A DNA stretch of 64,000 nt, from NCBI GenBank assembly GCA_902499925.1, contig GCA_902499925.1_4130.1. One strand, written 5' to 3'. Both the position numbers and the translations under genes were made by a program. Positions 10,134 to 61,650 of this stretch are shown here, in pieces (within the stretch, counting starts at the first letter, position 1; each line of letters opens with the position of its first letter). This DNA comes from Escherichia coli. GTDB lineage: Bacteria; Pseudomonadota; Gammaproteobacteria; Enterobacterales; Enterobacteriaceae. Under the pieces are notes generated by a model. The model did not search any database and was not told the DNA's origin. It was given only the letters and a program-made list of their open reading frames with translations.

Positions 10134-10181
10134 TCCATGTCAGTGTCGTAATGAAATTATATCACCGAATCAAGATATGTC

Positions 10182-12745: not shown

Positions 12746-12748
12746 ACT

Positions 12749-13274: not shown

Positions 13275-13283
13275 ATGAACTCC

Positions 13284-13541: not shown

Positions 13542-13567
13542 TTCTCCTTGTGCTAGGCTAGATAGTA

Positions 13568-14710
13568 CTAAAAATCCTTTAGTACAATTTTCATGTACTT
13601 AATAAGAGTCTCTTTGTAATCGACTTTCTTATTGTTGTACATTGCAAAGGCCAAGCCCTGACGATTCAGTTCATTAGTTAAACACTCCTGAACCTTCTTA
13701 GCGAATTCCTTTCGCTCCAAGTGCTTGTGTTCCTTGACGAAGCTTTCAACTTCATCTTGTAAAGCATTATAGCACGAAAAGACTAGTTGTTCCATTCTTA
13801 ATATCTTTTGAGTAGCATATTCGTCAGTACTGAACAACTGTTTTAAATCATCACTCGAACCATTTAATACAGCTTCATATAAATGGGAATCGATTATAAT
13901 ACTGTCTTTCGTTAAATGCAAAGAACAATACCAGTCGGTTTTGATTTTGCACATTGTACCATTATTTAGGATGCACACAAAACCTTCAATGTCAAGCATT
14001 TTCTTAACTTCTTCAACACTTTCTTTGAATGTAGCACGAACAGGGAAAGTGTAATGAATATCTTTACCTGTCATATTAGTACTGTACTGTGCAAGGCATG
14101 GAAACTTATTACGTAATGCAGAACCACATAATAGTTCACCACTCTTGCGATGGCGAACGTTTAGTACAAATAATTGTTCAACCTGGTATGGTAATACAAT
14201 ACGGTACTCTGGACTTGTATACTCCAGATTAACAGTATAGCCCAAACGGTCTGCTTCGTCAATGTATTGATACAAATTTTGGTTCTCATTGAGAAGACGA
14301 GTACTGTTAATCGCATGGTCTGAATACAATGCAGTATGTGATTTACAACGAATTACACCATCATTATCACGGTAAGTACTGATTACTGAACCATCCAACT
14401 TAGGCATCACTACTGCAATGTCATCGAATGTGGTATCAGCAGGGAACATTGTAGCAGGATTTTCATAAGCATTGAAGAACTTTTTCATAGTACGAGCAGC
14501 ACAACGAATCATATCACCGTCTTCATCAATTTCCCACATAGAACCACGGGTTTCTAATGCATTGGGTTGCATGAAATCGGTATATGATGCTAGACGATAA
14601 CTGAATACACGATATGTTCCACCAGCAGGACTTTTATGATCCACATAAAAGAAAGCCTCACGGGTATTACATAAGTGCATTAAATCTTCATATATTTGTA
14701 AAAGGGTCAT
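13568..14710 (-). CDS. rnlA: RNA ligase 1 (T4 Rnl1/gp63-like)
   Basis: Colinear with T4 Rnl1: TYRVFSY, RGSMWE, adenylation motif KLDGSVISTY, later blocks EGFV and KIKTDWY. Confidence 0.9.
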   Translation of the reverse strand: MTLLQIYEDLMHLCNTREAFFYVDHKSPAGGTYRVFSYRLASYTDFMQPNALETRGSMWEIDEDGDMIRCAARTMKKFFNAYENPATMFPADTTFDDIAVVMPKLDGSVISTYRDNDGVIRCKSHTALYSDHAINSTRLLNENQNLYQYIDEADRLGYTVNLEYTSPEYRIVLPYQVEQLFVLNVRHRKSGELLCGSALRNKFPCLAQYSTNMTGKDIHYTFPVRATFKESVEEVKKMLDIEGFVCILNNGTMCKIKTDWYCSLHLTKDSIIIDSHLYEAVLNGSSDDLKQLFSTDEYATQKILRMEQLVFSCYNALQDEVESFVKEHKHLERKEFAKKVQECLTNELNRQGLAFAMYNNKKVDYKETLIKYMKIVLKDF

Positions 14711-14970
14711 TTTATTACCTCTATATCTACATCTGTGCCATAGTAGGAAACGTAACCATTATCTGAATTACATTGAATTGATAACTCTGATTCATAGTAT
14801 GTTACTTTGAACACTGTTAGAACTTTTTCATCAATTTTTCCCGTTAAATAATCCATTTCACGAACACGAACTTTGGTTCCTTTTGGGAGTTCTTGTGCAA
14901 TTTTATTAACAAGTTCAAAAGCAGCTTCTTCAAGTGTGTGCAACAATTGCAATCTATCTTGGATATTCAT
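14707..14970 (-). CDS. small hypothetical protein (loose family D)
   Basis: Track ORF 14707..15015 trimmed to internal Met (MNIQDR); PKGTKVRVREMD segment. Confidence 0.4.
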   Translation of the reverse strand: MNIQDRLQLLHTLEEAAFELVNKIAQELPKGTKVRVREMDYLTGKIDEKVLTVFKVTYYESELSIQCNSDNGYVSYYGTDVDIEVIK

Positions 14971-14971
14971 A

Positions 14972-15661
14972 TTATTTCCACCAAGTTGTATCACGACCAC
15001 CAGACAAAGATTCATTGTACTGATGTCTGAAATTAGTATTTGGATTATTTGTCATTGTACTAATAAAATCAAATTTAACATTCTCTTGAATGTAATTAAT
15101 AACATTATCTTTAAATTTAATAGTACTGAAGTCTAAATCTAAATGTTCATACAATACAGGATGACAAAACTCATGTGTACGCAATGATGGCATGGTATCC
15201 TTAATGTATTGCACAGTGTTAATCATTGCATTGTACTCAGGCATAGCACGCATCATCATTAGCTGAAAGTGTTCTTCCTCTGACATTGACTCATCCAAAT
15301 CAATAACTACTTCATCATTTTTAGAGTCATATACTTTAATGGAACTCTTTGTTGGATCAAGCATAGCCCACTCTGGATACAGGCATGTTTTCCAAAAAGG
15401 ATTATTGCACTGAAACATACTAATGAGATTTTGATTTTTATCAAAAATAGCAAATCCAAGATCCGAACTTGGCTGTACTTCACATACACAAATATCATAA
15501 GGGGAGTCTTCAGTACTGAATGAACCAACTACATTTGATATATGTGAATATGGAGTTTCTCTTGATTTTAATTCAAAGGCTCTCTCCATACGATTAACCT
15601 GTGGTTGTAATGTAATTACACCCCTCAGTACATATAAAATTCTATCTAAATCTTTAATCAA
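14972..15661 (-). CDS. hypothetical protein
   Basis: 229-aa ORF. Confidence 0.5.
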   Translation of the reverse strand: MIKDLDRILYVLRGVITLQPQVNRMERAFELKSRETPYSHISNVVGSFSTEDSPYDICVCEVQPSSDLGFAIFDKNQNLISMFQCNNPFWKTCLYPEWAMLDPTKSSIKVYDSKNDEVVIDLDESMSEEEHFQLMMMRAMPEYNAMINTVQYIKDTMPSLRTHEFCHPVLYEHLDLDFSTIKFKDNVINYIQENVKFDFISTMTNNPNTNFRHQYNESLSGGRDTTWWK

Positions 15662-16236
15662 AATTCTATCCTCGTATCGGTTAATTTCGTTCCGTCCATG
15701 TACTTAACAGTTATTTCAATGCGACGATCAGTACTCAATTTTTGAAGATCATTGTAGTACAATTTAAATTCTTCAAAGAACTCAAGTGGGGGAATATCGT
15801 ATAAAGTACCAATCTGGAAGTGCTCAGGTAATCCAAATTCCAATATATCAATCTTAGGCATAAGTCCATCTGCTGCTGCACCTTCTGGAGTACTGCTGTC
15901 TGCTATATAAAACATAGAATTACCATGACGCTGGATAACGAATATGCAATCATCTTCACTTACATAAATCATATTTCCAAGGTATGGATCGTTATCACAC
16001 AAATTATCATGGACGAGTTGTTGAACTTGAAGTAAATCTTTTATAATTCCCTGACCACTATCGTCAACTAGAATATGTAAACCAGAACAATCTTTGCTCA
16101 ACCAGCGGTATCTTGCATCACATCCTGATTCCATAAATGGATATTTTGAAAAATCCATATCAGTACCATTATAAAACCAATCGTACCACTCATTACGCAT
16201 AGTAATCAGCTTAGTACATAATTCTAATACATTCAT
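15658..16236 (-). CDS. hypothetical protein
   Basis: 192-aa ORF, 4-nt overlap with downstream gene. Confidence 0.5.
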   Translation of the reverse strand: MNVLELCTKLITMRNEWYDWFYNGTDMDFSKYPFMESGCDARYRWLSKDCSGLHILVDDSGQGIIKDLLQVQQLVHDNLCDNDPYLGNMIYVSEDDCIFVIQRHGNSMFYIADSSTPEGAAADGLMPKIDILEFGLPEHFQIGTLYDIPPLEFFEEFKLYYNDLQKLSTDRRIEITVKYMDGTKLTDTRIEF

Positions 16237-16243
16237 TTTAGTT

Positions 16244-16546
16244 TTATCCTCTTAGTTTAATAATACTGGCTGGATAATCTACCATAGTACTATCTGGTAA
16301 TCCTATACAGTAATAAGGAAAATATCCCATCTTTATATTAATACCAATTAACATTCCAGTTTTATATGAAGTATTAATTTCATAGTGGTCGTCTATATCA
16401 ACCGCCAGTCCATATAAGGATATGTTACAATCCTTGATGTATCGTTCAAAGATTTTATACATTGATGGGTATAAAGTTCCATTGGATTCTCTTACTATAT
16501 CAGCCAACAACTTTATAGTACTGTTAATTAAATCTATACTAATCAT
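16244..16546 (-). CDS. hypothetical protein
   Basis: 100-aa ORF. Confidence 0.45.
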   Translation of the reverse strand: MISIDLINSTIKLLADIVRESNGTLYPSMYKIFERYIKDCNISLYGLAVDIDDHYEINTSYKTGMLIGINIKMGYFPYYCIGLPDSTMVDYPASIIKLRG

Positions 16547-16590
16547 CTTTGTACCTGCGAAAAAAGACCAGCAAACGCTGGCCTTAACAT

Positions 16591-16872
16591 TTAAATTATT
16601 TCATACAGACAATATACACCATCAACGCCATCACAAGGAAAATCAACATAGAAATTCACACTAACAGTATCATAATCAATCTCAGTGATGCGTCCGGTTT
16701 TACCTACACTCTTCACGAATAGGTCAGAGCCAAGATATACAAACTCAAACTCATCTGCATACTCTTTTATAATATCAGCAAAATCACAACCATATCTGGG
16801 ATCAGTATTAATAATCTCAAGATATAATGTAATGTATTGTTCGTATGACCATGTGTGTAGGTAAAAATCCAT
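16591..16872 (-). CDS. hypothetical protein
   Basis: 93-aa ORF. Confidence 0.45.
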   Translation of the reverse strand: MDFYLHTWSYEQYITLYLEIINTDPRYGCDFADIIKEYADEFEFVYLGSDLFVKSVGKTGRITEIDYDTVSVNFYVDFPCDGVDGVYCLYEII

Positions 16873-16881
16873 AACAGTTCC

Positions 16882-17619
16882 TTAGAAATATACCATACCC
16901 ATCAATTCTGAATCTTCAGGGCGAGTATAGCCTTGTTTCTTAACTTTAAAGTAGAAGGATTCATTGTCTTCTAAATTATAACGTTTCTTCAAGCAACGGG
17001 TATATGTCTGGCAATTAGGATGAACCCATTCATATATATGAACACCATCTTCATTATAACCATTTATACTACAACGGTTGCCTTCATGTTTCTTGTAGTT
17101 CTTGCTTTTCTCGGTAAATTCTTTTACAGCAGTAGTACTTGGTGATTTATATTCAAAAGGAACTTCAGTCATACGGAAATAATAATATTGATCGTCTTCA
17201 TCATATCCCAAGAGCACTGTGTTAGTTTCACGTACATTGTAATGATTCTTACTTTTCAATTCATTTTCATATATATCTTGAAGTACTTCTTCAAATACTG
17301 TAGTACTGTCAGCATTTGGGTTGGATACACCTGATACTCTTCGTTCAATAATAAAATCAGTATATTTGCGGTCTTCTGCAATGTCTTCATTCATATAAAG
17401 ACTAACGAACTTATCCTTGTACGTCTTTACACTGTATTGTTTACTTTGAACTTCGCTATATACATCTGCTAACATATTCTCCTGACCGCACTGCACACCA
17501 CTTACAGAATAAGCACATGCATGTTCAGCCATCACTGATGTTAACATTTGAAAATTTGCCATGTTTAATTCATTCGCCATCTCTGTAGCGAAACGGATAC
17601 GGTCAAGCACTTTCCACAC
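16882..17619 (-). CDS. hypothetical protein
   Basis: 245-aa ORF. Confidence 0.5.
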   Translation of the reverse strand: MWKVLDRIRFATEMANELNMANFQMLTSVMAEHACAYSVSGVQCGQENMLADVYSEVQSKQYSVKTYKDKFVSLYMNEDIAEDRKYTDFIIERRVSGVSNPNADSTTVFEEVLQDIYENELKSKNHYNVRETNTVLLGYDEDDQYYYFRMTEVPFEYKSPSTTAVKEFTEKSKNYKKHEGNRCSINGYNEDGVHIYEWVHPNCQTYTRCLKKRYNLEDNESFYFKVKKQGYTRPEDSELMGMVYF

Positions 17620-17668
17620 TCCTTGTGTTAGTTATTGTTCCTTATCCATTATTATATCACTACTTGAG

Positions 17669-17971
17669 CTATCGTCCCGCTTTGTAACAATAAAGATTCT
17701 CAAATTTAAAGTTCTCTATATCACATTCCTCACGAACTCGGTTCTTGTTCCAGAACAGAATACGAATCCTTTCATAATCACGATAAACACTAATAATACT
17801 TCTGTGTTTAGATTTGTAGTACTGCTGTATAACCTGAAGAGTTATATCCCTCAGCTTGGACTTAATTGGGTAAGACATATCATTACTAGTTGTTATGGTA
17901 TAAACCATCTTCATTGTTTCAGCAACAAGTACTTCATTCGATTTATTTGCCATTAAAATCCTTACAAACAC
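17669..17971 (-). CDS. hypothetical protein
   Basis: 100-aa ORF. Confidence 0.45.
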   Translation of the reverse strand: MFVRILMANKSNEVLVAETMKMVYTITTSNDMSYPIKSKLRDITLQVIQQYYKSKHRSIISVYRDYERIRILFWNKNRVREECDIENFKFENLYCYKAGR

Positions 17972-18112
17972 TATGTAAAGTAAATCCTAAACCTACACCT
18001 ACGAATGGGAATAGTAAATTAATGTACCAGACATTCATTGTCGATAAGAAACAAATCCCACTTACGGTTAGTACTGCCAGTGAGAAAAGACTCCAGATAA
18101 AAAATAATGCTC

Positions 18113-18403
18113 TCATAAAAATGTTACCTCGTTAGATGAGTAGTTACGATATATTTGTGAATTATGTTCCACACCATGAATTGTTATATGCCCGTTGTAG
18201 AAAAAAGTAACATCTACTACTTTTAGTTCTTTGCGTTTTTTAGTACTGAAATATCTACCAACTAACGCAGCATATATATAATCCCTGTACTCTTGAGTAA
18301 TGAATTTATACATATTATGATTTGCACTACACTTTTCATCATAAGTATTAGTATATTCTTTCATCAGTAGAGCATATGTTTTTTGTATTAATATGATATT
18401 CAT
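18113..18403 (-). CDS. hypothetical protein
   Basis: 96-aa ORF. Confidence 0.45.
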   Translation of the reverse strand: MNIILIQKTYALLMKEYTNTYDEKCSANHNMYKFITQEYRDYIYAALVGRYFSTKKRKELKVVDVTFFYNGHITIHGVEHNSQIYRNYSSNEVTFL

Positions 18404-18663
18404 CTGTAGTTTAATATTGAAATGGGAAGACTATATATATGTGCGTAAAGTTTATCAACTCTTTCCATATTCACTTTTAAAGTACTTCCATAACGACTAA
18501 TGCTATCTATACGATAAAGCACGTCATTCAGCATCATTACGGTATCGGTGTAATCTTCACTAAGAGATTCAATGTAGATATCTTCAAGTTTCACATCCAT
18601 GCGTGGTATATCTAAATCCCTCAATAAACGCAGTGTTTGCACGATCAGTTCAGCTTTAGTCAT
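18400..18663 (-). CDS. hypothetical protein
   Basis: Track ORF 18400..18786 trimmed to internal Met (MTKAEL); ATGACTAA overlap with upstream zinc-ribbon ORF. Confidence 0.4.
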   Translation of the reverse strand: MTKAELIVQTLRLLRDLDIPRMDVKLEDIYIESLSEDYTDTVMMLNDVLYRIDSISRYGSTLKVNMERVDKLYAHIYSLPISILNYR

Positions 18664-18856
18664 GAATACGCTCACATGCCAGACAATAAATGCACTCAAT
18701 GTCAGGTCGCCATGATTTATCGAAATCTTTGTGCTGTTCTTCAGTGTATTCCGCATCATCATTGATAGGAAAGAAATCCCCAGCACCAGAGGCCCAGTCT
18801 GAATCTAAACGGAAACGAGCTAATTGAGTACTGTTGCAATATGGACATTTATTCAA
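18656..18856 (-). CDS. small zinc-ribbon protein
   Basis: 66 aa with CPYC ... CIYCLAC. Confidence 0.45.
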   Translation of the reverse strand: MNKCPYCNSTQLARFRLDSDWASGAGDFFPINDDAEYTEEQHKDFDKSWRPDIECIYCLACERIHD

Positions 18857-19133
18857 AATTTATTCCTTCTAACTGATATACGTTTAATGAAAATGACCCA
18901 CTATTATTATCGCATCTGAAACACAGTGTTAAAGAACCATTAAAACTAACAACATCAGTACATATACATTTTTCACCATTGGATATGATAGATTTTCCTA
19001 TATATAAATCTCTTACTATAGTACGGTAATGTTGCCATAAAAAATAATACACACTTTCATAGTACTCATCTTTTACATATGACAAGTATAAGAATTTATA
19101 AAATACTTGTATTTCCTTTAAGTTGTTTTTCAT
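18849..19133 (-). CDS. paralog family C member
   Basis: N-terminus MKNNLKEIQVFYKFLYLSY shared with four adjacent ORFs. Confidence 0.55.
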   Translation of the reverse strand: MKNNLKEIQVFYKFLYLSYVKDEYYESVYYFLWQHYRTIVRDLYIGKSIISNGEKCICTDVVSFNGSLTLCFRCDNNSGSFSLNVYQLEGINFE

Positions 19134-19407
19134 TCTCCAACTCCAGTAAATTTACACCAATCCAATCAACATCACTATCAGTACTTAATTCCAATCGTAG
19201 CTTACCGCTATGACTAACAATATCGCGGAATTTGTATATTTTATTATCACGAACTATACACAAATCATGGTAATATTCATGTAATTCATCCAAAAACTTT
19301 ATCCATACCGAACGATAGATTTCACCGTAGAGATATTCTCCAGCATCAACCGTAGCGTATTGGATATACAAAAATTTGTATGTGAATTGTATATCATTAA
19401 TATTCAT
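19096..19407 (-). CDS. paralog family C member
   Basis: MNINDIQFTYKFLYIQY. Confidence 0.55.
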   Translation of the reverse strand: MNINDIQFTYKFLYIQYATVDAGEYLYGEIYRSVWIKFLDELHEYYHDLCIVRDNKIYKFRDIVSHSGKLRLELSTDSDVDWIGVNLLELENEKQLKGNTSIL

Positions 19408-19417
19408 ATGTCAACTC

Positions 19418-19729
19418 TTATAGGTCCGTTAACTTCATAACTTTAATCTCCATAAATTCCCTATCAGTTTTTTCAAGAAATTCTACATGGATAATACCTT
19501 GATAAGATTTTACACCTGAATATTCAAATATGTCATCTCCATCAGTGTAAGTACTGTAATTCTTTTTTATATATTCAGCAATAGAATCTAAGTAATCATA
19601 GTAATTATTAATAAATGGTGATTCTTTTGATTCGACATGTTCACCAATCTTCCCACTAAAAAGATACATGTCATACAAACCATATATATTTTTATACGTG
19701 AATTGAACATCATTCAAATTTAATTTCAA
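19418..19729 (-). CDS. paralog family C member
   Basis: MKLNLNDVQFTYKNIYGLY. Confidence 0.55.
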   Translation of the reverse strand: MKLNLNDVQFTYKNIYGLYDMYLFSGKIGEHVESKESPFINNYYDYLDSIAEYIKKNYSTYTDGDDIFEYSGVKSYQGIIHVEFLEKTDREFMEIKVMKLTDL

Positions 19730-19986
19730 GGGAATATCTCCAGAGGAACACTCGTAAATCCAAAATCAGTGAAGAACTGTACCTCGACTTTACCATCGAG
19801 CTTAATGATTATATCTGAAAATTCTGCATGATCGTTGTTAATAATTACAGTACTGAATTTTTCTTTAATCCTCTCACGCACAATATTAATCATTTCAATA
19901 CATGTATCTTCTAAAAACACACTATTATTTTTATTTGCTAGGTCACGAATGCACTTGAATGTTAATTGGAAATCTTTATAATTCAT
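19726..19986 (-). CDS. paralog family C member
   Basis: MNYKDFQLTFKCIRDL; 4-nt overlaps on both sides. Confidence 0.55.
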   Translation of the reverse strand: MNYKDFQLTFKCIRDLANKNNSVFLEDTCIEMINIVRERIKEKFSTVIINNDHAEFSDIIIKLDGKVEVQFFTDFGFTSVPLEIFP

Positions 19987-20252
19987 ATATTCACCAAATC
20001 AACAGAGAATAAGTCGTTATCAAATTTATATGAAAGTACTAATCTACCACCAAAACTATCGACTCTAAGTATCTTTCGTTTTTTCCCATTAATGAAAATT
20101 TCAGTATTAATAAAATACTCACGTAATTCTTCTAGGTAATTTGACCATAATTTATGAGTAAACGCATTTTTATTAATTGTGTTAGTACTTCTGTGATTAT
20201 GGTGTAATTTAAATAATTCCATATAAGTGAATTGTATATGTTTGTAATTCAT
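19983..20252 (-). CDS. paralog family C member
   Basis: MNYKHIQFTYMELFKL. Confidence 0.55.
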   Translation of the reverse strand: MNYKHIQFTYMELFKLHHNHRSTNTINKNAFTHKLWSNYLEELREYFINTEIFINGKKRKILRVDSFGGRLVLSYKFDNDLFSVDLVNI

Positions 20253-20298
20253 ATTTCCCCTTACAAAAATAGCCCGAACTTATGTCGGGCTATATGTA

Positions 20299-20958
20299 TT
20301 ATTCATCGTCATCATCGTCGTCGAGATCTAGGTAAATGTCAGCATCACCATCATCAAAGTACTCAACAACTACACCAGGAATGTTCAGTGCTGTAAACAT
20401 CGCATCATATTTTTCATCAGATGGGATAAGAACAAACTCATCAATGCTTTGAATTTCAGGCATACGATCTTCAGGAATACCCATTTGCAACAAGGATTGG
20501 ATGATTTTTTCCTTGTATTCTTGGAACTTCTCTTCTGATTCGAAATCCATAATAAGTTGTGCTACATAACCATCTTCGTTACCAAATGCGATTGACATTT
20601 GTGCATCAGTACCGACATATGACCATGTACGCTTGCCAGTATTTTTCTCAATGAAGTTCTGAATTTCAAGAACGATTTCATGACGAGAACTATTGGCAAT
20701 GTTGTTAAGGTTAGCAACACCAGCAATAATTTCTGAACTATCATTGGATTCTTCGAATGTACCATAGTCACCTAATACATATTGAACACCATCACAATGT
20801 AATGCATATGCATAATCCAAATCAGCAAGTGAATCACACTTACCACGGATTGGGCGTAGGGAAAGCCCTAGGCGAAGATAACGAAAGTATGTATTAGTAT
20901 TTGTATTTGTCAACGTAATGCTCCTTAACAATATAAAAGTAGTTGCTGTTGTTGTCAA
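20299..20958 (-). CDS. acidic protein with poly-Asp C-terminus
   Basis: Ends DLDDDDDDE; true start uncertain (long N-terminal extension, next Met at residue 121). Confidence 0.45.
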   Translation of the reverse strand: MTTTATTFILLRSITLTNTNTNTYFRYLRLGLSLRPIRGKCDSLADLDYAYALHCDGVQYVLGDYGTFEESNDSSEIIAGVANLNNIANSSRHEIVLEIQNFIEKNTGKRTWSYVGTDAQMSIAFGNEDGYVAQLIMDFESEEKFQEYKEKIIQSLLQMGIPEDRMPEIQSIDEFVLIPSDEKYDAMFTALNIPGVVVEYFDDGDADIYLDLDDDDDDE

Positions 20959-21202
20959 AAAAGATGACTAATCCTTTGTAGACATTTACACCAATCTTGA
21001 TTTGGCATATTTTATTCGATTTACAAGCCTCAGTCAATAACATCTTGTGCTCTTTACTGAAAGTGTGGAATAGTGGTTTTACATGCCACATCTCCACACC
21101 ATCTAGTACTGGAAAATGTTCACTGAATTTGATCATTGATTCTTGTAAAAAATAACCTGTTAGATTCGAATCATCAGACATGTAAGTTCGCCAGGAAGTC
21201 AA
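20894..21202 (-). CDS. hypothetical protein
   Basis: 102-aa ORF. Confidence 0.4.
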   Translation of the reverse strand: MTSWRTYMSDDSNLTGYFLQESMIKFSEHFPVLDGVEMWHVKPLFHTFSKEHKMLLTEACKSNKICQIKIGVNVYKGLVIFFDNNSNYFYIVKEHYVDKYKY

Positions 21203-21467
21203 TTACTTCGTCATGTGTTAACTTATCACTACGCTCTAGAACATTGATGATGAATGGTGTTTGACTATATAATTCAGCCAGAAAAGCAACTTCATCAGAT
21301 GTATAAGAATATCCCATAGGAACAACTTGTGCAGTCCAGTTTCCTAAAGTTTTGTTTGCAATGATTGCAACCACCGTATTACCTTTGAATTCAACATGGA
21401 TTGAACGGAAACCCGAATCCTCATTCTGATCCCAAAGTACTGGGTTAGTTTTAAACAGTACTGACAT
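21174..21467 (-). CDS. hypothetical protein
   Basis: 97-aa ORF. Confidence 0.45.
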   Translation of the reverse strand: MSVLFKTNPVLWDQNEDSGFRSIHVEFKGNTVVAIIANKTLGNWTAQVVPMGYSYTSDEVAFLAELYSQTPFIINVLERSDKLTHDEVIDFLANLHV

Positions 21468-21469
21468 AG

Positions 21470-22003
21470 TTATTTCCTCATGTATTTTATTACATCTTCA
21501 AATAGTTTAGTTTTCAGTGCATCATCATTACCAGGTAGAAAAGTACTGAAGCTATTAAAATCTTCATTCTTGGCAAACTCACGCATCTGTGTGGAACTGT
21601 AGCGACTTACATTTCGGTCAATTCCAGCTTGAACTGCCTTGATTGAACAAAAATTATATAACTTCCCATTGTACGTGTCAAGTGTTTTTTGGAATGGTTC
21701 AAGTCTGTCTGAACCACATATGAAAAGAACATCTAAGTACTTTCCATCCAGTTCTCTCATTATATCAAACAGATTATCTTCTGTATAGATATTTTCTTGT
21801 ACAGATGGGTAAAATCCTTCTGTATAGTACATTTTCAGTTCAGGAGGTAATGGGTTTTTGACGGCATCAGTACTGGTACTAAGGAATATTTTCAAATCAG
21901 CATTGTACTGTTCTTGTAGTGCTTGAGCTTTTTCAAACACTAAACCATGACCTCGATGTACAGGGTTAATTCTTCCGAATGTCACTACGCATGTTTCTTT
22001 CAT
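21470..22003 (-). CDS. cytidylyltransferase-like nucleotidyltransferase (PPAT/NMNAT-like)
   Basis: N-terminal FGRINPVHRGH (GxFxPxHxGH) and C-terminal YSSTQMR (ISSTxxR-like) signatures. Confidence 0.65.
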   Translation of the reverse strand: MKETCVVTFGRINPVHRGHGLVFEKAQALQEQYNADLKIFLSTSTDAVKNPLPPELKMYYTEGFYPSVQENIYTEDNLFDIMRELDGKYLDVLFICGSDRLEPFQKTLDTYNGKLYNFCSIKAVQAGIDRNVSRYSSTQMREFAKNEDFNSFSTFLPGNDDALKTKLFEDVIKYMRK

Positions 22004-55535: not shown

Positions 55536-55880
55536 TTAATACTCAATAATGTGTTCTTCATAATCACCATTAGGCTCCTGTTTAGCTTCTTTCATTAGTA
55601 CTATCATCTTATGTACTAATGGCATAGGAAACTCTAAATCCCATACTAATGATTCCTGAAAGTATTCCTCTGGTGATAAAGTACTTAAATCTTTAATATC
55701 AACGTGCTTGTATATTTTATTTTCGTAATTAACAAATGATATATATAAATCATTAATATAAGAATCATACGTAATTGTGAATGGCTTACCCTTGTAGTCC
55801 ATTACATCTCTACATAGACTACTTTTGATATATATATGTTCATAGGATTTATATACCTTGAGTTGTATATTAGTTTTCAT
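55536..55880 (-). CDS. paralog family A member
   Basis: STLSPEEYFQESLVW. Confidence 0.55.
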   Translation of the reverse strand: MKTNIQLKVYKSYEHIYIKSSLCRDVMDYKGKPFTITYDSYINDLYISFVNYENKIYKHVDIKDLSTLSPEEYFQESLVWDLEFPMPLVHKMIVLMKEAKQEPNGDYEEHIIEY

Positions 55881-56121
55881 ATTTCTCTTTATTAGCTTGT
55901 TTGGTTTTATAGTGAATTAAATCTATTAATGTAATCAAGTACAACTTCAAAAAGTACTCTTGATGGTTCGTACCTAATGATACAAAGAACTTATGCTCAT
56001 AAATCAAAACCTGTTTCACTTCAAAGGGACACTTAATCCTCTGTATAGGTTTAAGTAAATGATAGTACTTATTAAATCTATGATACATTTCTAGTTCTGT
56101 CAGTACTTTCATATTAAACAA
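55870..56121 (-). CDS. paralog family B member
   Basis: LGTNHQEYFLKLYL. Confidence 0.55.
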   Translation of the reverse strand: MFNMKVLTELEMYHRFNKYYHLLKPIQRIKCPFEVKQVLIYEHKFFVSLGTNHQEYFLKLYLITLIDLIHYKTKQANKEKYEN

Positions 56122-56335
56122 TCACTCCATTAGCTGTAGCATCACGTAAAGCTCTCAAATACTTCTGTACTGCTTGCTCTTGCTTATTTGTACCTAAAAG
56201 TATATACATCCATAATTCACTGTAATGTACATCTTGTGTATAAGGGTTGTTGTAACTTTTTGATAATATAGCATCAAATTCAGATGCATGAACCCTTGTG
56301 AACTTAAGAATATCTTGTTGTGTTATGATTCTCAT
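56114..56335 (-). CDS. paralog family B member
   Basis: LGTNKQEQAVQKYL. Confidence 0.55.
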   Translation of the reverse strand: MRIITQQDILKFTRVHASEFDAILSKSYNNPYTQDVHYSELWMYILLGTNKQEQAVQKYLRALRDATANGVIV

Positions 56336-56547
56336 ATCTTTTCCTGTACTATCTGTATAAGAATCCCTATGTGTGAATTAACAGTTCTCTCTTGATGCTG
56401 TGTTCCTAAGAGTGTCAGTACTATCATCTCTGAACGCAAAAGATTTTTCTGAAGTTCACTTATATCAGTCCTCATATCAAGATTCAGAAATTCTTGACTA
56501 TTTTTTCTGAATAGTGCCAAGTACTCTTGATTTGATATTTCCTTCAT
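56332..56547 (-). CDS. paralog family B member
   Basis: LGTQHQERTVNSHI. Confidence 0.55.
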   Translation of the reverse strand: MKEISNQEYLALFRKNSQEFLNLDMRTDISELQKNLLRSEMIVLTLLGTQHQERTVNSHIGILIQIVQEKI

Positions 56548-56774
56548 AGTTTATCCCTGATGCCATTTAAAAGTGCTCTAATATGCTCCTGTACGAATTT
56601 GTACTGACTGTCTGTTCCTAGAGTGAGTAGCAATCTTAAATCTGAACTTTTGATGTGATATTCTAAATCATTATTTGATTCTTGCATCAGTTTCTTAAAG
56701 GATGAGAAGTTTGCAGCCATTAGTTCAATGTATTCTGCTGTTCCTAGTGGTTTGTGTATTGGCTGTTTGTGCAT
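56544..56774 (-). CDS. paralog family B member
   Basis: LGTDSQYKFVQEHI. Confidence 0.55.
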   Translation of the reverse strand: MHKQPIHKPLGTAEYIELMAANFSSFKKLMQESNNDLEYHIKSSDLRLLLTLGTDSQYKFVQEHIRALLNGIRDKL

Positions 56775-56986
56775 TTTAATTTTATTACCCTTTTGAGTGT
56801 ATTAATGTAATTATACACATTGGCTTCTTGATAGTTAGTTCCCAGTGTAGCTTGAACATAGATTTCATTTAACTTAATAATTTTATCAGTATCTGGTAGT
56901 TTTGATGTGTTAATGGCAAATAACTTCAAAAACAGTCCATTTAAGATTGTTAGGTATTCTTCGTCGGTAATGATTCGCATTTGCAT
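56744..56986 (-). CDS. paralog family B member
   Basis: LGTNYQEANVYNYI. Confidence 0.6.
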   Translation of the reverse strand: MQMRIITDEEYLTILNGLFLKLFAINTSKLPDTDKIIKLNEIYVQATLGTNYQEANVYNYINTLKRVIKLKCTNSQYTNH

Positions 56987-57192
56987 TGGATAAACCTTTT
57001 TAGTTCTTTGATGTAATCATTAATATTGCATTCTTGATAGTTAGTCCCTAGGGTAGCTTGAACATAGATTTCACTCATTAGAATATTTTTTTCTTCATCA
57101 GGTAAATCTGTGGTCTTTGCTATATACAATTTTAGAATTAAACTACTTAATAGTTCGTGGTATTCACTTGGTGAAAGGATTTTCATTTGCAT
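56950..57192 (-). CDS. paralog family B member
   Basis: LGTNYQECNINDYI; near-duplicate of 56744..56986 at DNA level. Confidence 0.6.
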   Translation of the reverse strand: MQMKILSPSEYHELLSSLILKLYIAKTTDLPDEEKNILMSEIYVQATLGTNYQECNINDYIKELKRFIQCKCESLPTKNT

Positions 57193-57398
57193 GTTCTCAG
57201 TACAGATTCTTTAAGTTCATCGATGTAGTCCTCAACGAATTGCTCTTGGAAGTTAGTTCCAATATATAAAAGAACTCTTAAATCTGCTCTAAGTAACTCT
57301 TTTTCATCATCATCTATATCAGACAATGTTATGTTTAAGAATTTACTTGTATTAAAGATTAACAATTCTGTTTGTTCACTGTGGCTTAAAATTTTCAT
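57183..57398 (-). CDS. paralog family B member
   Basis: IGTNFQEQFVEDYI. Confidence 0.55.
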   Translation of the reverse strand: MKILSHSEQTELLIFNTSKFLNITLSDIDDDEKELLRADLRVLLYIGTNFQEQFVEDYIDELKESVLRTCK

Positions 57399-57606
57399 AA
57401 TCTCTTTTTGCTTTCCTCGACAGTAGGTACAAATACGATTCTTCGTATTGTGCTTGGAAGTTTGTGTTTAAGAGTCGAAACAACTTCTGTTCTTCTAGAA
57501 CGAGTTGCTTATCTTCATAACAACGGTAGCGTATCAACTTTTTGTATTCGATGTTGATTACATCCATTACTATAAGCCCATGTTCATCATCTGTCAAGTG
57601 CTTCAT
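57376..57606 (-). CDS. paralog family B member
   Basis: LNTNFQAQYEESYL. Confidence 0.5.
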   Translation of the reverse strand: MKHLTDDEHGLIVMDVINIEYKKLIRYRCYEDKQLVLEEQKLFRLLNTNFQAQYEESYLYLLSRKAKRDYENFKPQ

Positions 57607-57845
57607 GCTTTTTTTCTTTTCCTGATGTGTTTAGTTAAAAGGTATATTAGTTTTCTGATGTATTCTTCCTGATAGTTTGTTCCTAATAGTGCAAGAAGTT
57701 TTGCTTCAACTAAAGCTAATTGACGTTCTTCAAATGTGTGTTCCAGTATGTACTTTGGGTTTGATTTTTTAGAAATTGCACTATTAGTTTTCATTACAAT
57801 CTTATGATATTCATTAACTGTTAGGATTTTTAAATTCTTGAGCAT
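57603..57845 (-). CDS. paralog family B member
   Basis: LGTNYQEEYIRKLI. Confidence 0.55.
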   Translation of the reverse strand: MLKNLKILTVNEYHKIVMKTNSAISKKSNPKYILEHTFEERQLALVEAKLLALLGTNYQEEYIRKLIYLLTKHIRKRKKA

Positions 57846-58071
57846 GTACCTTTTCCTTTATAGAGAATTTAAGATATCGAAGCATACTTTCAATGTAATA
57901 CTCTTGTCTGTCAGTTCCAAGAAAGTACAGGAGTTGAATGTATAAAACTTCTGCACTCCTTTCGGCATGTGACTTGTTTGTGTCGTTTGGAAGTTGATTT
58001 GTAAGTTTTCTGGATTTAATTAATCGTTCTTTTAACTCATCGTCTGTTAAGTATTTCATTTGCATTTGCAT
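57814..58071 (-). CDS. paralog family B member
   Basis: LGTDRQEYYIESML. Confidence 0.55.
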   Translation of the reverse strand: MQMQMKYLTDDELKERLIKSRKLTNQLPNDTNKSHAERSAEVLYIQLLYFLGTDRQEYYIESMLRYLKFSIKEKVHAQEFKNPNS

Positions 58072-58297
58072 TTACTTTTTCCTTAATAGTGATTTTAAGA
58101 TATCTAATCATACGTGCAACATATTCCTCTTGTCTATCAGTTCCCAGAAGATATGGTAGTGATTGGAATAATACTTCTGCACTCCTTTCTGCTGGGGTTT
58201 GGTTTAGGTCAATTGGACGTTTATTGGTATATCTCTTGGCACGAACTAATCTCTCGACGTATTCATTATAGGTTAAGTATATCATTTCATTTTGCAT
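58037..58297 (-). CDS. paralog family B member
   Basis: LGTDRQEEYVARMI; twin of 57814..58071. Confidence 0.55.
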   Translation of the reverse strand: MQNEMIYLTYNEYVERLVRAKRYTNKRPIDLNQTPAERSAEVLFQSLPYLLGTDRQEEYVARMIRYLKITIKEKVNANANEILNRR

Positions 58298-58533
58298 TTA
58301 ATGTTTCTTACGTAAATTGTCTGGATTAAACAATCAATCCAAGTTTGAATATATTGGTTTTGATACTGTGTGCCTAAGAGACTCTGCATTTTAAACTCTG
58401 CTTCAAGTTCATATCTCTTTTCTATAGAAAAGCTCAAATGACCATATTCTTTATCGTATCTTCTCAGTGCTTCCCCAATTCTATCAAATCTTTCTGCTAA
58501 TCTGATGTTATTCACAATATTCATCGCATTCAT
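58282..58533 (-). CDS. paralog family B member
   Basis: LGTQYQNQYIQTWI. Confidence 0.55.
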   Translation of the reverse strand: MNAMNIVNNIRLAERFDRIGEALRRYDKEYGHLSFSIEKRYELEAEFKMQSLLGTQYQNQYIQTWIDCLIQTIYVRNIKCKMK

Positions 58534-58808
58534 CGATCAGTACACCTCAGTGGTTGGGTCATTTGATGAAAGTACAGCTTACCTCTGATTTCCAGTAGTA
58601 ACTCCGCGATTAAGCGATTTACTTCTGTATCTTGATAGTTTGTTCCTAAGAATACACCCATCTTTAACTCACGCATCATAATCATTTTCTTACTGTGTTG
58701 AATTTCTGGGTTGTGATAGATTGTATTACGTTTGTGCGTAATTTTTGTCATACGCTCGGTATATTCATCTTTACTTAAATTAATCATTTTTATTCTCCAA
58801 AGCATCAC
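58530..58808 (-). CDS. paralog family B member
   Basis: LGTNYQDTEVNRLI. Confidence 0.55.
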   Translation of the reverse strand: MMLWRIKMINLSKDEYTERMTKITHKRNTIYHNPEIQHSKKMIMMRELKMGVFLGTNYQDTEVNRLIAELLLEIRGKLYFHQMTQPLRCTDR

Positions 58809-59019
58809 ATTTATTTTCGATACAAATCATTAGTTCTCTAAGATAGTTTTTTATCTTACCTTCCTGATGGTTCGTCCCCAGGAAGTTGCATAACTCTGCT
58901 TCTATTATTTTGATTCTTCTGGTGTCAGGTTTCAATTTTTTGTTATTGAAGATTTGAATCCTTATATCCCTTGATGCATTTAAACGTTTTTGATATTCAT
59001 GGAAAGATAAATTAATCAT
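58780..59019 (-). CDS. paralog family B member
   Basis: LGTNHQEGKIKNYL. Confidence 0.55.
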   Translation of the reverse strand: MINLSFHEYQKRLNASRDIRIQIFNNKKLKPDTRRIKIIEAELCNFLGTNHQEGKIKNYLRELMICIENKCDALENKND

Positions 59020-59234
59020 TTACTTTGTATCTCTCTCTTGAGGGCATCAATTAACAACAGTACAGCATTCTCTTGATAGTTTGTTCCTAAGACTGAAAGC
59101 ATCTTAATCTCATTTACTACAATCAACTTCTTTGAGCGTTCAATAATGTTACTATTATAAACGGCGTTACGTGCTGGATAAGTTTTTGCAAGACGAACAT
59201 AATATTCATCTTTACTTAAATTAATCATTTGCAT
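59016..59234 (-). CDS. paralog family B member
   Basis: LGTNYQENAVLLLI. Confidence 0.55.
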   Translation of the reverse strand: MQMINLSKDEYYVRLAKTYPARNAVYNSNIIERSKKLIVVNEIKMLSVLGTNYQENAVLLLIDALKREIQSK

Positions 59235-59443
59235 TTACTTTGGATCTCCTTGACTAATGCATCAACCCACATGTCTATATACATTTGTTGATAGTTTGTC
59301 CCTATGAGTGCCCCTGCATAGAGTTCAGCTACCATTGCATGTTTTAGGTTGGCAGGGATGCTCTTATCAGATTGAATCTTTACTCTTCTGTTGGCACATG
59401 TTTTCAGAAGCTTAACATATTCGTAACCTATTAATTTTCTCAT
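59225..59443 (-). CDS. paralog family B member
   Basis: IGTNYQQMYIDMWV. Confidence 0.55.
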   Translation of the reverse strand: MRKLIGYEYVKLLKTCANRRVKIQSDKSIPANLKHAMVAELYAGALIGTNYQQMYIDMWVDALVKEIQSKCK

Positions 59444-59655
59444 TCTTTTGATATCACCTTGTTACGTAAGGCACTTAACAATACGTCAGTGTAGATGTTT
59501 TGATAGTTTGTTCCTACGAATACACCCAACTTCATTTCAGCTATTATAACACATTTGTCCTCTTGTGCAATAGACTTGTCTAAAGAAATACTAACAACTT
59601 TCCTTCTTATAGCTTGTAACCTCCAATGATACTGATACTCATTTAGGGTTATCAT
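59440..59655 (-). CDS. paralog family B member
   Basis: VGTNYQNIYTDVLL. Confidence 0.55.
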   Translation of the reverse strand: MITLNEYQYHWRLQAIRRKVVSISLDKSIAQEDKCVIIAEMKLGVFVGTNYQNIYTDVLLSALRNKVISKE

Positions 59656-59890
59656 TCTCTCGCCTCCATTTCTCGGTTCTAATGTGTTGACATTGTGCTT
59701 CGATGAACATATCTATTGATTTGGCAATTGCTTTTTTATCTGTGCCTGTCATCAGTACAAGCATCTCGGCCTCACAGTGAAGTAAACGCATGATATCATA
59801 GGGTAATATTCCAGATACCGTGTCATAGTGTTTCTGTGCCAGTGTCTGTAATAGTTTACAATACATTTTGTGATTTAGTCTGTGTCGCAT
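59639..59890 (-). CDS. paralog family B-like (divergent)
   Basis: TGTDKKAIAKSIDMFI. Confidence 0.45.
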   Translation of the reverse strand: MRHRLNHKMYCKLLQTLAQKHYDTVSGILPYDIMRLLHCEAEMLVLMTGTDKKAIAKSIDMFIEAQCQHIRTEKWRRENDNPK

Positions 59891-60147
59891 TGTTTATTCC
59901 ATTCTTTTTTGGCCTTGATGGTTTTATATTGGATTTGGTTTCTTAATGCTGATAAGTATCGTTGAATGAACAGATCTTGATAGTTTGTTCCAATGAATTT
60001 CATCAGATAAAGTTCACCGTTGATAACATCCACTTCAGGTGCACCATATAAGGCATTGTTTTTTCTAAGGGTATGGATTAAAGAGAATAGGGCAGTTTGA
60101 TACTCAACTCCTGATAAAGTCTTCATGTTTTGTGAGCCAATAATCAT
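59875..60147 (-). CDS. paralog family B member
   Basis: IGTNYQDLFIQRYL. Confidence 0.55.
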   Translation of the reverse strand: MIIGSQNMKTLSGVEYQTALFSLIHTLRKNNALYGAPEVDVINGELYLMKFIGTNYQDLFIQRYLSALRNQIQYKTIKAKKEWNKQCDTD

Positions 60148-60361
60148 CTAGTTTATCCTGTATAACATTCATTAATTGTTCGACATATTCTGTGCAAAAC
60201 TTATCTTGATATTGAGTCCCCATAAAGTACAACAACCATAGCTCATTAACTTTAGCTCGCATTTGGTTCCATGTAAGGCTGGGGTCATCGTAGACTATCC
60301 TTGCTATAGGGGTTAGTTTACGGACTATAGTTTCATATTCATCTAGTGTTAAGTGTTTCAT
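60104..60361 (-). CDS. paralog family B member
   Basis: MGTQYQDKFCTEYV. Confidence 0.55.
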   Translation of the reverse strand: MKHLTLDEYETIVRKLTPIARIVYDDPSLTWNQMRAKVNELWLLYFMGTQYQDKFCTEYVEQLMNVIQDKLDDYWLTKHEDFIRS

Positions 60362-60576
60362 TTACATTTGTCCCTTATTAGATCAGTGAGGGCAACTATG
60401 TGTGCAACAACATACTCTTCCTGAAAGTTCGTCCCCAGTACAGCCATCATGCGTATATCGGTGGTGTTTATCCTGTGTTCCCTTACACATAAACCTTCTG
60501 TGTGAGGAAGTGTAAAATATTTGTTTATTGCAGCAACGATAATTTTATTCTTCTCGGAGTTACTTAAATGTTTCAT
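60358..60576 (-). CDS. paralog family B member
   Basis: LGTNFQEEYVVAHI. Confidence 0.55.
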   Translation of the reverse strand: MKHLSNSEKNKIIVAAINKYFTLPHTEGLCVREHRINTTDIRMMAVLGTNFQEEYVVAHIVALTDLIRDKCK

Positions 60577-60785
60577 AGTTTGCTCTTAATGTATTTCTGG
60601 AGTGCAATTATATACTCATTCAAGAAATGCTCCTGATAGTCTGTGCCGAGGAATGCACCCAATAGTATATCATTTTCCAATACTAATGCTAAGTTTAAAT
60701 CATCAGTCTCTTCATATACTATGAGAATTTCAAGTTGTCTGGCAGCGACGCGTTCGGTATATAGATTTGAGTTAATGCTATTCAT
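60573..60785 (-). CDS. paralog family B member
   Basis: LGTDYQEHFLNEYIIALQKYIKSKL. Confidence 0.55.
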   Translation of the reverse strand: MNSINSNLYTERVAARQLEILIVYEETDDLNLALVLENDILLGAFLGTDYQEHFLNEYIIALQKYIKSKL

Positions 60786-60994
60786 AGTTTACTCTTAATG
60801 TAATTCTGGAGTGCAATTAAGTATTCCCCTACATAATACACCTGAAAGTCTGTATCCAAAAATGCACCCATAAGTAAATCTTTTTCTAATACCCTTGATA
60901 AGTTAAGGTCTGCATTTGAAAGGTATATAAGTAAGATTTCACCCTGTGCGGAATTGAAACGTTTCTTATATTCTTCTGGTGTTAAAAAAATCAT
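60782..60994 (-). CDS. paralog family B member
   Basis: LDTDFQVYYVGEYLIALQNYIKSKL; twin of 60573..60785. Confidence 0.55.
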   Translation of the reverse strand: MIFLTPEEYKKRFNSAQGEILLIYLSNADLNLSRVLEKDLLMGAFLDTDFQVYYVGEYLIALQNYIKSKL

Positions 60995-61200
60995 AGTTTC
61001 CTCTTAATATCTTCTATTAAAAATCGAATCCAATCGTCAACATACTCTTCCTGATGGTTTGTGTTCAGTACAGCCAACATGCGGATCTCTGCTCTTGCAA
61101 CTTCAATTGCAGTTTTAGGAAGGTCTTTTCTGATATCCAACATTAAGTCCATGTATCTCAAGATAAGACCGTATGATTGGGTTCGTGTTATAGTTTTCAT
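60991..61200 (-). CDS. paralog family B member
   Basis: LNTNHQEEYVDDWI. Confidence 0.5.
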   Translation of the reverse strand: MKTITRTQSYGLILRYMDLMLDIRKDLPKTAIEVARAEIRMLAVLNTNHQEEYVDDWIRFLIEDIKRKL

Positions 61201-61397
61201 TGTTTCCTCGTGGATAATATTTCATTTTTCAATGCATCCATATATTGAATCACCCATCTTCCCTGATAGCTTGTTCCCAATGTAATCAAAAGGTATAACT
61301 CAATTCGTTCTAAGTTTGTGTCTGTGTTATAAATCTTTACCATGTTTTTACGTAACAGTTCTTGATAATCTTCTTTATTTAAAATACGCATTTTCAT
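61197..61397 (-). CDS. paralog family B member
   Basis: LGTSYQGRWVIQYM. Confidence 0.5.
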   Translation of the reverse strand: MKMRILNKEDYQELLRKNMVKIYNTDTNLERIELYLLITLGTSYQGRWVIQYMDALKNEILSTRKQ

Positions 61398-61591
61398 AGT
61401 CTACCTTTTATGTCCCTTCGTAATTCTTGTAAGTATAGTTCGATATACTTTTCTTGATAGTTAGTTCCTATGAAAAGTTTCATAACCAATTCACGCTTAT
61501 ATGCAATACCACGGATATGTGACATATGTAGGATATATGCCATGTTGGATATGAGTGTGTGGTTGTGCTCTTCTTGAGTTAAAATACGCAT
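61394..61591 (-). CDS. paralog family B member (first gene of the tandem array in transcription order)
   Basis: IGTNYQEKYIELYL; track ORF 61394..61621 trimmed to internal Met (MRILTQ) preceded by GGAG. Confidence 0.55.
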   Translation of the reverse strand: MRILTQEEHNHTLISNMAYILHMSHIRGIAYKRELVMKLFIGTNYQEKYIELYLQELRRDIKGRL

Positions 61592-61619
61592 AGGGACTCC
61601 ATTAAAAATAATATCAATC

Positions 61620-61650
61620 ATATAATATACAATTCATATAAAAAGTCAAT
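61620..61650 (-). promoter_or_regulatory. sigma70-like promoter candidate upstream of family B array
   Basis: Minus-sense TTGACT-~16nt-TATTAT/ATATTA with TG upstream; approximate. Confidence 0.4.

Follow-up and report, generated by a model that had tools for sequence, protein, structure and literature searches.

A tandem array of 26 related genes

The stretch analyzed here comprises 64,000 nucleotides deposited under Escherichia coli (assembly GCA_902499925.1, contig GCA_902499925.1_4130.1) and is referred to as the window; its most conspicuous feature is a block of small genes at positions 55870-61621. The listing of open reading frames (ORFs) contains 26 consecutive ORFs of 64-85 amino acids (aa) there, all on the minus strand and with at most 5 nt between neighbours, in agreement with an original prediction that had been made by a model from the letters of the sequence and had counted 26 back-to-back ORFs. 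All 26 genes can be aligned along an N-terminal segment M-K-x-[LI]-[TS]-x-x-E-Y, a core [LIVM]-G-T-[ND]-x-Q-[ED] and a tail V-x-x-Y-I-x-x-L-x-x-x-I-x-x-K, which matches the N-terminal segment, GTN-type core and Y-I tail of that prediction. Taken together, the results described below show that one small protein family (phrog_4148) has undergone a lineage-specific expansion here; the family is real, old and selectively maintained and consists of soluble helical proteins.

The 7.5 kb around the array matched 41 phage records, every one of them from a jumbo phage of Escherichia or Salmonella that belongs to the PBECO4/121Q group (genus Asteriusvirus). Over this region, identity was 96% to CMSTMSU, WPEC5, Ecwhy_1 and fEgEco12, 88% to PBECO4 and 85% to 121Q; the best phage record was 96% identical to the window, and no match to the window was found among complete E. 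coli genomes. Judged by sequence similarity, the window belongs to a jumbo coliphage of the genus Asteriusvirus (PBECO4/121Q-like). The genes under the phage-record match are labelled as hypothetical proteins in every GenBank record inspected, and a description of the tandem array was not found in the searchable literature. The paper on the phage RaK2 mentions that approximately 10% of the RaK2 proteins are paralogues and nothing further (PMC3622015). In the phage of the window, the array family makes up approximately 5% of the genes.

A profile hidden Markov model (HMM) of the family was built from the 26 array genes plus the ORF at 55308-55532, and each sequence was then scored against a profile from which it had been left out. 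This leave-one-out procedure recognized 26 of the 27 sequences, with E values between 6e-9 and 8e-23, and the family HMM returned zero matches in five shuffled windows, so the protein family that had been claimed is genuine and not a product of chance. The sole failure was the gene at 59639-59890, which carries TGTDKKA instead of GTNYQE. Nevertheless, a profile of its orthologs aligned with the rest of the family in hhalign (77%, E 2e-5, 76 columns), and its AlphaFold2 model, with a predicted local distance difference test score (pLDDT) of 83, has the last two helices (H3 and H4) positioned as in the family. The array count of 26 stands, with 25 clear members and one divergent member. All seven members tested matched the phrog_4148 profile over its full length (E 1.3e-9 to 1.2e-22, positions 1-70 of 74), which places the array in the same protein family as phrog_4148 and, with weaker matches, phrog_28039. 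The phrog_4148 entry carries no function, no structure and no mention of a tandem organization. The proviso in the original prediction that the genes might turn out to be a known repeat protein family thus applies weakly only, phrog_4148 being an uncharacterized cluster. An exhaustive HMMER scan of 1.84 billion representatives retrieved only 86 clusters, all of 52-121 aa.

The first gene of the array probably starts at 61591, with a Shine-Dalgarno (SD) sequence GGAG upstream, rather than at 61621, given that the promoter match in front of the array has a -10 element ending at 61622. When the conserved Met of M-K-x-L-[TS]-x-x-E-Y was taken as the start codon, 13-14 of the 25 junctions were ATGA overlaps of 4 nt and the remainder were overlaps of 8-32 nt or gaps of 1-5 nt; the description of the junctions as mostly 4-nt overlaps is therefore only barely accurate. 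The overlaps of 8-32 nt arise because some upstream genes have longer C-terminal tails. The overlapping junctions are compatible with translational coupling, and an SD-like word of 4 nt or more lies in front of 15 of the 27 starts as compared with 18% of random positions.

Members are numbered from the highest coordinate to the lowest, and each is given here with its length and leave-one-out E value. Member 1 (61394-61591, 65 aa, E 5.6e-13, the longest ORF extending to 61621) is followed by member 2 (61197-61391, 64 aa, E 3.5e-12), for which an alternative start at 61397 would create an ATGA overlap, then by member 3 (60991-61200, 69 aa, E 2e-15), member 4 (60782-60994, 70 aa, E 2.1e-16), which is 51% identical to member 5, and member 5 itself (60573-60785, 70 aa, E 3.6e-14), which is acidic, with an isoelectric point (pI) of 4.4. 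Members 6 (60358-60576, 72 aa, E 7.3e-18), 7 (60104-60361, 85 aa, E 2e-18) and 8 (59875-60126, 83 aa, E 1.2e-13) precede the divergent member 9 (59639-59890, 83 aa), after which come member 10 (59440-59655, 71 aa, E 1.2e-15) and member 11 (59225-59443, 72 aa, E 3.8e-20), the representative chosen for modelling. Member 12 (59016-59228, 70 aa, E 6.8e-20) matches phrog_4148 with E 1.2e-22. The middle of the array continues with members 13 (58780-59019, 79 aa, E 4.8e-17), 14 (58530-58787, 85 aa, E 1.3e-19), 15 (58282-58524, 80 aa, E 8.1e-10), 16 (58037-58285, 82 aa, E 1.7e-13, 53% identical to member 17), 17 (57814-58059, 81 aa, E 2.4e-16) and 18 (57603-57845, 80 aa, pI 10, E 2.7e-16). Then follow members 19 (57376-57606, 76 aa, E 6.4e-9), 20 (57183-57398, 71 aa, acidic, E 3.5e-19), 21 (56950-57186, 78 aa, E 8.4e-23, 50% identical to member 22), 22 (56744-56980, 78 aa, E 3e-20; phrog_4148 E 2.5e-19), 23 (56544-56774, 76 aa, E 2.7e-13), 24 (56332-56547, 71 aa, E 6.4e-15) and 25 (56114-56335, 73 aa, E 1.3e-11), and the contiguous array ends with member 26 (55870-56112, 80 aa, E 7.5e-12). 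As a side observation, plus-strand AT skew reaches -0.20 to -0.22 within the array (56000-60000), as compared with approximately -0.03 to -0.07 in most of the window, since the coding strand of the family is A-rich (Lys, Asn, Glu and Ile being abundant).

The predicted four-helix protein

AlphaFold2 was run on member 11 with an alignment of 28 sequences from the window and returned a confident model (pLDDT 97, predicted template modelling score (pTM) 0.82) that consists of four helices at residues 6-14, 17-25, 31-45 and 52-71. The suggestion that the genes encode a small helical protein is thus borne out at the level of prediction. Residue 2 is bridged to residue 49 in the model, and therefore the conserved N-terminus and the LGTN loop would lie together at one pole of the protein. 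Conservation scored column by column over 80 non-redundant members of five lineages revealed a conserved hydrophobic core (L4, Y9, L13, I23, V35, L40, L42, L46, V55, I59, L62, and I66) and a further set of conserved columns (E8, E39, G47, T48, N/D49, Q51, E/D52, Y58, and K69), and most of the remaining columns hold less than 1 bit. The motifs [ST]5-x-x-E8, before helix 1, and T48-x-x-Q51, before helix 4, look like helix N-capping boxes in the model. This suggests that the role of the conserved polar residues is to define the fold and not to form a common binding site.

Searches of Pfam, NCBIfam and the sequences of the PDB yielded nothing informative for the family, and neither sequence nor fold comparison found a relative of known function for the four-helix protein, a small fold that, going by the model, is apparently new. 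Known anti-phage defence components were not matched either, as PADLOC-DB produced only isolated single-member matches with E values of 0.0016 or weaker. Transmembrane segments were absent from the members (the maximum Kyte-Doolittle mean over 19 residues was 1.38, and the grand average of hydropathy was mostly negative). The homologs in phage phAPEC6, gp467c-gp489c, are not among the 62 virion proteins identified by mass spectrometry (PMC7247149, Table 1), a method that small proteins can escape even though a protein of 4.7 kDa was seen. Hence, neither the published virion proteome nor hydropathy identifies the array proteins as virion or internal head proteins, or as membrane or secreted proteins of the exclusion or holin-like kind.

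Regarding charge, 19 of the 27 members are net positive and six are acidic (pI 4.4-6.1), the median pI being approximately 9. We rejected a DNA-mimic anti-restriction function of the Ocr/ArdA type, for which a strongly acidic surface is expected, on the basis of these values. The same values, together with C-terminal ends rich in Lys and Arg, would suit small nucleic-acid-binding or regulatory proteins, transcription-factor-like or nucleoid-coating, each with its own sites on phage or host DNA or RNA. A precedent exists in phage G, in which approximately 35 copies of a zinc ribbon were proposed to be specific transcription factors or DNA-binding proteins (PMC7824862). We nonetheless regard this explanation as unlikely, given that no helix-turn-helix (HTH) or other DNA-binding Pfam match was obtained, that the motif has helices of 15 and 20 residues on its two sides, separated by a loop of 6 residues, unlike an HTH, and that six members are acidic. 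The L-G-T-x-x-Q motif has a superficial likeness to the turn and recognition helix of Cro-like HTH proteins, which amounts to a lead and not to a test. A Cro/CI-like HTH was rejected, as neither an HTH profile match nor a fold similarity with the short turn of 3-4 residues was found.

Position, turnover and selection

The position of the array relative to the direct terminal repeat (DTR) was derived from two relatives. The DTR of fEgEco12 measures 20,993 bp, as confirmed by PhageTerm and restriction digests (PMC13070987), and the first array gene of this phage starts at 21091; in the record of vB_Ec-M-J, a DTR is annotated at 1..21525 and the array begins with a gene that starts at 21624. When aligned, both relatives map the inner boundary of the left DTR, of approximately 21 kb, to approximately position 61689 of the window (61680-61700), about 40 bp upstream of the -35 hexamer of the promoter match, with the higher coordinates belonging to the repeat and the array being single-copy. 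The array begins approximately 100 bp past this boundary and thus adjoins the repeat without lying inside it. Because the minus strand of the window corresponds to the plus strand of the phage, the array is the first thing encountered after the left repeat. The boundary itself lies in an intergenic block of 250 bp (61590-61845) that is 96% identical even to 121Q, as compared with approximately 85% genome-wide, and the GC-rich core of this block, GGGGGCTAAAGGGCGGGTAACCTTAGCGACTTCG, is a possible terminase or terminus recognition sequence.

A sigma70-like promoter match, TTGACT-16-TATTAT, precedes the array on the minus strand (61622-61649) and agrees with the consensus at 10 of 12 positions. 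Its hexamers are invariant and its spacer is variable across the window, 121Q, vB_Ec-M-J and fEgEco12, which supports the promoter-like sequence originally placed at approximately 61.62-61.65 kb. At 61608-61641, a 16-nt direct repeat (ATAATATACAATTCAT on the plus strand, 2.2 copies) brings in a second -10-like TATTAT, and so two candidate -10 elements are present. All nine sigma70-like matches of at least 11/12 between 36 and 64 kb fall on the coding (minus) strand, although promoter-like sites as a whole are just as numerous as expected from shuffles; perfect 12/12 sites occur on the coding strand at 63471, 53542, and 38460. The next strong match beyond the array is at 54989. No convincing terminator was found inside the array on the coding strand, where a single weak stem of 5 bp occurs (56287-56271), and the number of terminator-like hits is within chance (7 versus 4.0 ± 2.2 expected). 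Further downstream, a terminator-like hairpin (50532-50511) is directly followed by a promoter match (50502-50474). A hairpin-promoter motif was also considered and discarded, since CCCTTGAC and GGGATTGAC are not enriched.

Two sigma70-like sites on the minus strand lie inside array genes, namely TTGACA-17-TATAGT at 57569-57597 in member 19 (paralog MKHLTDDEHGLIV) and TTAACA-17-TATAGT at 60324-60352 in member 7 (paralog MKHLTLDEYETIV). Both occupy the same codons 4-13 (L-T and x-I-V) of their genes. The site at 57569-57597 is 100% conserved in 121Q, and the gene that hosts it has an unusually low synonymous divergence (dS 0.10). From their sequence, the two sites may be internal promoters or may reflect recent exchange. 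Internal promoters as a general feature of the array were dismissed, because good matches are confined to these two paralogs and to homologous codons.

The copies are old. Paralogs share a mean pairwise identity of 25%, and the neighbouring pairs described as near-twins in the original prediction (56744/56950, 57814/58037, and 60573/60782) are just 50-53% identical in protein and 65-69% in DNA, so that the term does not apply. Tandem Repeats Finder detected no array at the DNA level, the best DNA pair being 124 nt at 77%, and recurrence in DNA was limited to stretches of 20-47 nt, chiefly the motif CTTGATAGTTTGTTCCTA that encodes LGTNYQ. Recent tandem duplication of the "genomic accordion" kind was consequently rejected, as near-identical DNA copies were not found. 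Contiguous units were counted by HMM in the window (26), vB_Ec-M-J (26), fEgEco12 (28), and 121Q (23), a comparison restricted to these four and leaving out PBECO4, phAPEC6, BF17, UE-S1, and CMSTMSU. Positional orthologs are 74-100% identical in vB_Ec-M-J and 73-100% in fEgEco12. In 121Q the recognizable ones are 48-94% identical, and three slots have no recognizable counterpart. The two extra units of fEgEco12 are 32% and 53% identical to their closest paralog, and they are thus old units that one lineage has and another lacks, as opposed to newly made copies. With the closest paralogs approximately 50% identical, slots shared as positional orthologs and extra units this diverged, the duplications must predate the divergence of the genus, and the claim that the array is actively expanding is not supported. 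Instead, these sequences indicate that copy number (23-28) changes through the loss, gain or exchange of old units.

Signs of such changes are visible in the nucleotide alignment to vB_Ec-M-J and fEgEco12, in which a background of 97-100% identity is interrupted by local patches of 78-90%, and whole-unit insertions or deletions fall exactly at gene junctions (near 59210-59228 and 60364). The more distant phage Turkey5 has approximately 20 members at the same locus. All but two of these are just 31-46% identical to any member of the window, whereas the six adjoining genes of the terminal repeat are 94-100% identical (median 96.6%). When positions 15000-60000 of the Turkey5 record (PQ471516.1) were compared with positions 27000-64000 of the window, protein identity fell to approximately 38% exactly at the repeat boundary. 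The low identity persists through approximately 35 kb of paralog-rich genes and rises in patches below position 27000.

These comparisons bear on the possibility that the paralogs are subunits of a hetero-oligomeric intracellular structure or complex whose dosage is balanced by tandem order and coupling. The ATGA overlaps and abutting genes are what such an arrangement would show, slot order is kept among close relatives, and the conserved pole of the model, formed by the N-terminal strand and the GT loop, could serve as a common interface. On the other hand, the number of units ranges from 23 to 28, single units are present, absent or replaced without disturbing their neighbours, and the repertoire of Turkey5 is almost wholly different, which would be unexpected for a co-adapted complex; moreover, the monomer model is already well packed (pTM 0.82). 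We therefore consider a complex quite improbable.

More distant members of the family occur in the Klebsiella phages RaK2 and K64-1 (approximately 12, in small clusters), and an uncultured contig of 101 kb carries at least 12 members in tandem and 4 scattered ones. An uncultured relative (ENA ERZ14189038 NODE_1, 55948-76184) has the same layout, with spaced genes followed by a tight family array. One of its spaced upstream genes (3046-3297) has a Pfam match to a ParE_like toxin, and its blastn similarity to Asteriusvirus is restricted to the surroundings of the last terminal-repeat gene, a stretch that also matches jumbo phages of Erwinia, Yersinia, Pectobacterium, and Serratia. In RaK2 (NC_019526.1, 225169-265531), the 121-aa product of ORF362 combines an N-terminal array-family domain with a C-terminal extension, and the gene comes after a gene-free gap of approximately 780 bp that itself follows a run of widely spaced genes.

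Selection was estimated from the ratio of nonsynonymous to synonymous substitution rates (dN/dS, Nei-Gojobori) between the window and 121Q orthologs. The ratio ranged from 0.18 to 0.90 in 19 array genes, with a median of 0.39, as compared with a median of 0.25 in 67 neighbouring genes (Mann-Whitney p=3e-4). Control ORFs in overlapping wrong frames gave values of 1.4-3.0. Since values lie below 1 in frame and above 1 in the control frames, the array genes are coding and constrained, although less tightly than their neighbours. Whole-gene positive selection was rejected, as every omega was below 1.

The relaxed ratio relative to the neighbours (0.39 versus 0.25), the tolerated loss and gain of units and the variation of C-terminal tail length through shifted stop codons might be expected from decaying or neutral duplicates, or from annotation noise, produced as a by-product of recombination in a hyperplastic region. 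This explanation is largely refuted and in our opinion very improbable: none of the 26 frames is broken, every gene that could be tested has a dN/dS below 1 while the out-of-frame controls reach 1.4-3.0, core residues are conserved in at least five lineages that include the Klebsiella phages, the fold is predicted with confidence, and SD-like words are threefold above background.

Possible roles and neighbouring gene families

The array is an uncharacterized case of a known phage feature, namely the expanded accessory gene families of plastic early regions, and what makes it notable is its size, the strictness of its tandem packing, a confident orphan fold and a repertoire that turns over sharply beside a conserved terminal repeat. 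From this context we infer, with a confidence that stands about midway between doubt and acceptance, that it is an operon expressed early and with coupled translation, in which one scaffold with diversified surfaces gives rise to effectors of host takeover or anti-defence. Under this scenario, the host RNA polymerase would transcribe the array in the early phase of infection as a single long operon, from approximately 61615 down to approximately 54991, with coupled translation. Its products would share one stable scaffold whose diversified surfaces bind different host proteins, serving to take over the host or to neutralize its defence systems, and the exchange of units among phages would re-tune the repertoire to the host population. 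The family sits where early host-interaction genes are expected, and it differs sharply between otherwise near-identical phages.

Several observations weigh against an effector role. No sequence or fold similarity to known host-takeover or anti-defence proteins was found. The majority of members are basic, which would suit nucleic-acid binding as well, and translational coupling that gives equal dosage could likewise be expected of subunits belonging to a single complex. The promoter-like site in front of the array is just a 10/12 match, and promoter-like sites are no commoner than in shuffles. Furthermore, with dN/dS below 1 in every gene, there is no direct whole-gene signature of positive selection. 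Finally, the adjoining 35 kb or so are equally divergent between phages, and therefore fast turnover is a property of the region and not of the array family alone.

Known systems offer partial parallels to such an operon of effectors. The Bacillus phage SPO1 has a host-takeover module of 26 small early genes in its terminal region, with promoters and ribosome-binding sites that are read by the host machinery, and several of the products shut off host processes (PMC6873191). By analogy, this module appears to be the closest organizational counterpart of the array, as both comprise approximately 26 small genes situated at or beside a long terminal repeat in a large myovirus. The SPO1 takeover genes are, however, not known to form a single paralogous family; they are distributed over several operons within the repeat, and targets have been demonstrated for some of them, whereas the array consists of one family located just outside the repeat in what is apparently one operon, and shares no sequence similarity with the SPO1 genes. 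In evolutionary terms, the closest analogue would be the zinc-ribbon expansion of approximately 35 copies in the Bacillus jumbo phage G, which likewise represents a very large expansion of one small domain within a genome and has a function that is only guessed (PMC7824862). Unlike the zinc ribbon, the array protein is four-helical and has no Cys/His metal site.

Clusters of small early genes of unknown function with host-type promoters are also found in the hyperplastic regions of T4-like phages and among the pre-early (terminal-repeat) genes of T5; they vary strongly between otherwise similar phages and are believed to fit the phage to particular hosts. Such clusters mix ORFs that are unrelated to one another, whereas the array locus holds 26-30 paralogs of one fold. 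Outside phages, the MGF110, MGF360 and MGF505 genes of African swine fever virus and the host-range genes or "genomic accordions" of poxviruses form paralog arrays by terminal repeats, act on host defences and differ in copy number and content between isolates. Accordion expansions are recent and near-identical, whereas the array copies are on average 25% identical and include no recent duplicate; these viruses belong to a different realm and have no homology to the array.

A role in competition between phages or in a persistent (carrier-state) lifestyle, for example by blocking superinfecting phages or slowing infection, was considered as well, as an alternative to takeover of a naive host. 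Asteriusvirus genomes are frequent in assemblies of E. coli isolates, which has been interpreted as persistent infection (bioRxiv 10.1101/2024.12.31.630880), many database homologs lie on contigs of approximately 350 kb labelled as E. coli, and rapid turnover of the repertoire fits any arms race. Nevertheless, nothing links the family specifically to persistence, its members have no membrane segments, which many exclusion proteins possess, and it also occurs in RaK2-type phages of Klebsiella; we thus assign this role a low probability.

Returning to host-takeover or anti-defence effectors, a bolder version can be proposed that we offer only as a tentative and rather unlikely possibility. The array would be a germline-encoded repertoire of binders on an undescribed and, according to the model, very stable four-helix scaffold of 70 residues, with fixed residues that define the fold and with diversified surfaces, in which each paralog neutralizes a different host defence or factor and units are swapped between phages as cassettes; this repertoire, more than the receptor-binding proteins, would then decide in which E. 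coli strains takeover or persistence of the phage is possible. Jumbo phages of the Asteriusvirus group are being characterized for therapy, and more than 80% of their genes have no function assigned. If the units are takeover or anti-defence effectors, each genome would supply 25-30 candidates for new inhibitors of bacterial proteins, with several dozen distinct sequence types across relatives, and the locus could be a marker that explains differences in host range. Should the units instead turn out to bind DNA or one another, the locus would represent an unusual instance of 26 paralogs in a translationally coupled operon.

Four further members of the family were found outside the array, all on the minus strand. 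The 27th member (55308-55532, 74 aa, leave-one-out E 1.5e-10, phrog_4148 E 1.3e-9) lies one gene past the array, and the others, none of which belonged to the training set of the HMM, are a weak outlying member at 53752-54003 (83 aa, E 4.9e-5, also listed as 53755-54003) and two at 41000-41227 (E 2.5e-5) and 40828-41019 (E 1.9e-12, also listed as 40831-41034). The gene that breaks the series (55536-55880, minus strand, 114 aa) belongs to a different paralog family with an EEELFQESLV motif. Kinship between the family of this 114-aa gene (LSxEEYFQ motif) and the array family was rejected at an hhalign probability of 0.2%. The EEELFQESLV family has 15 members of 103-193 aa on the same strand between 30752 and 55880, including the genes at 55536-55880 and 54991-55356 beside the array. 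Two more paralog families are encoded on this strand, one with 9 members of 146-184 aa at 36208-44792 and the other with 3 members of approximately 90-100 aa at 18852-20279.

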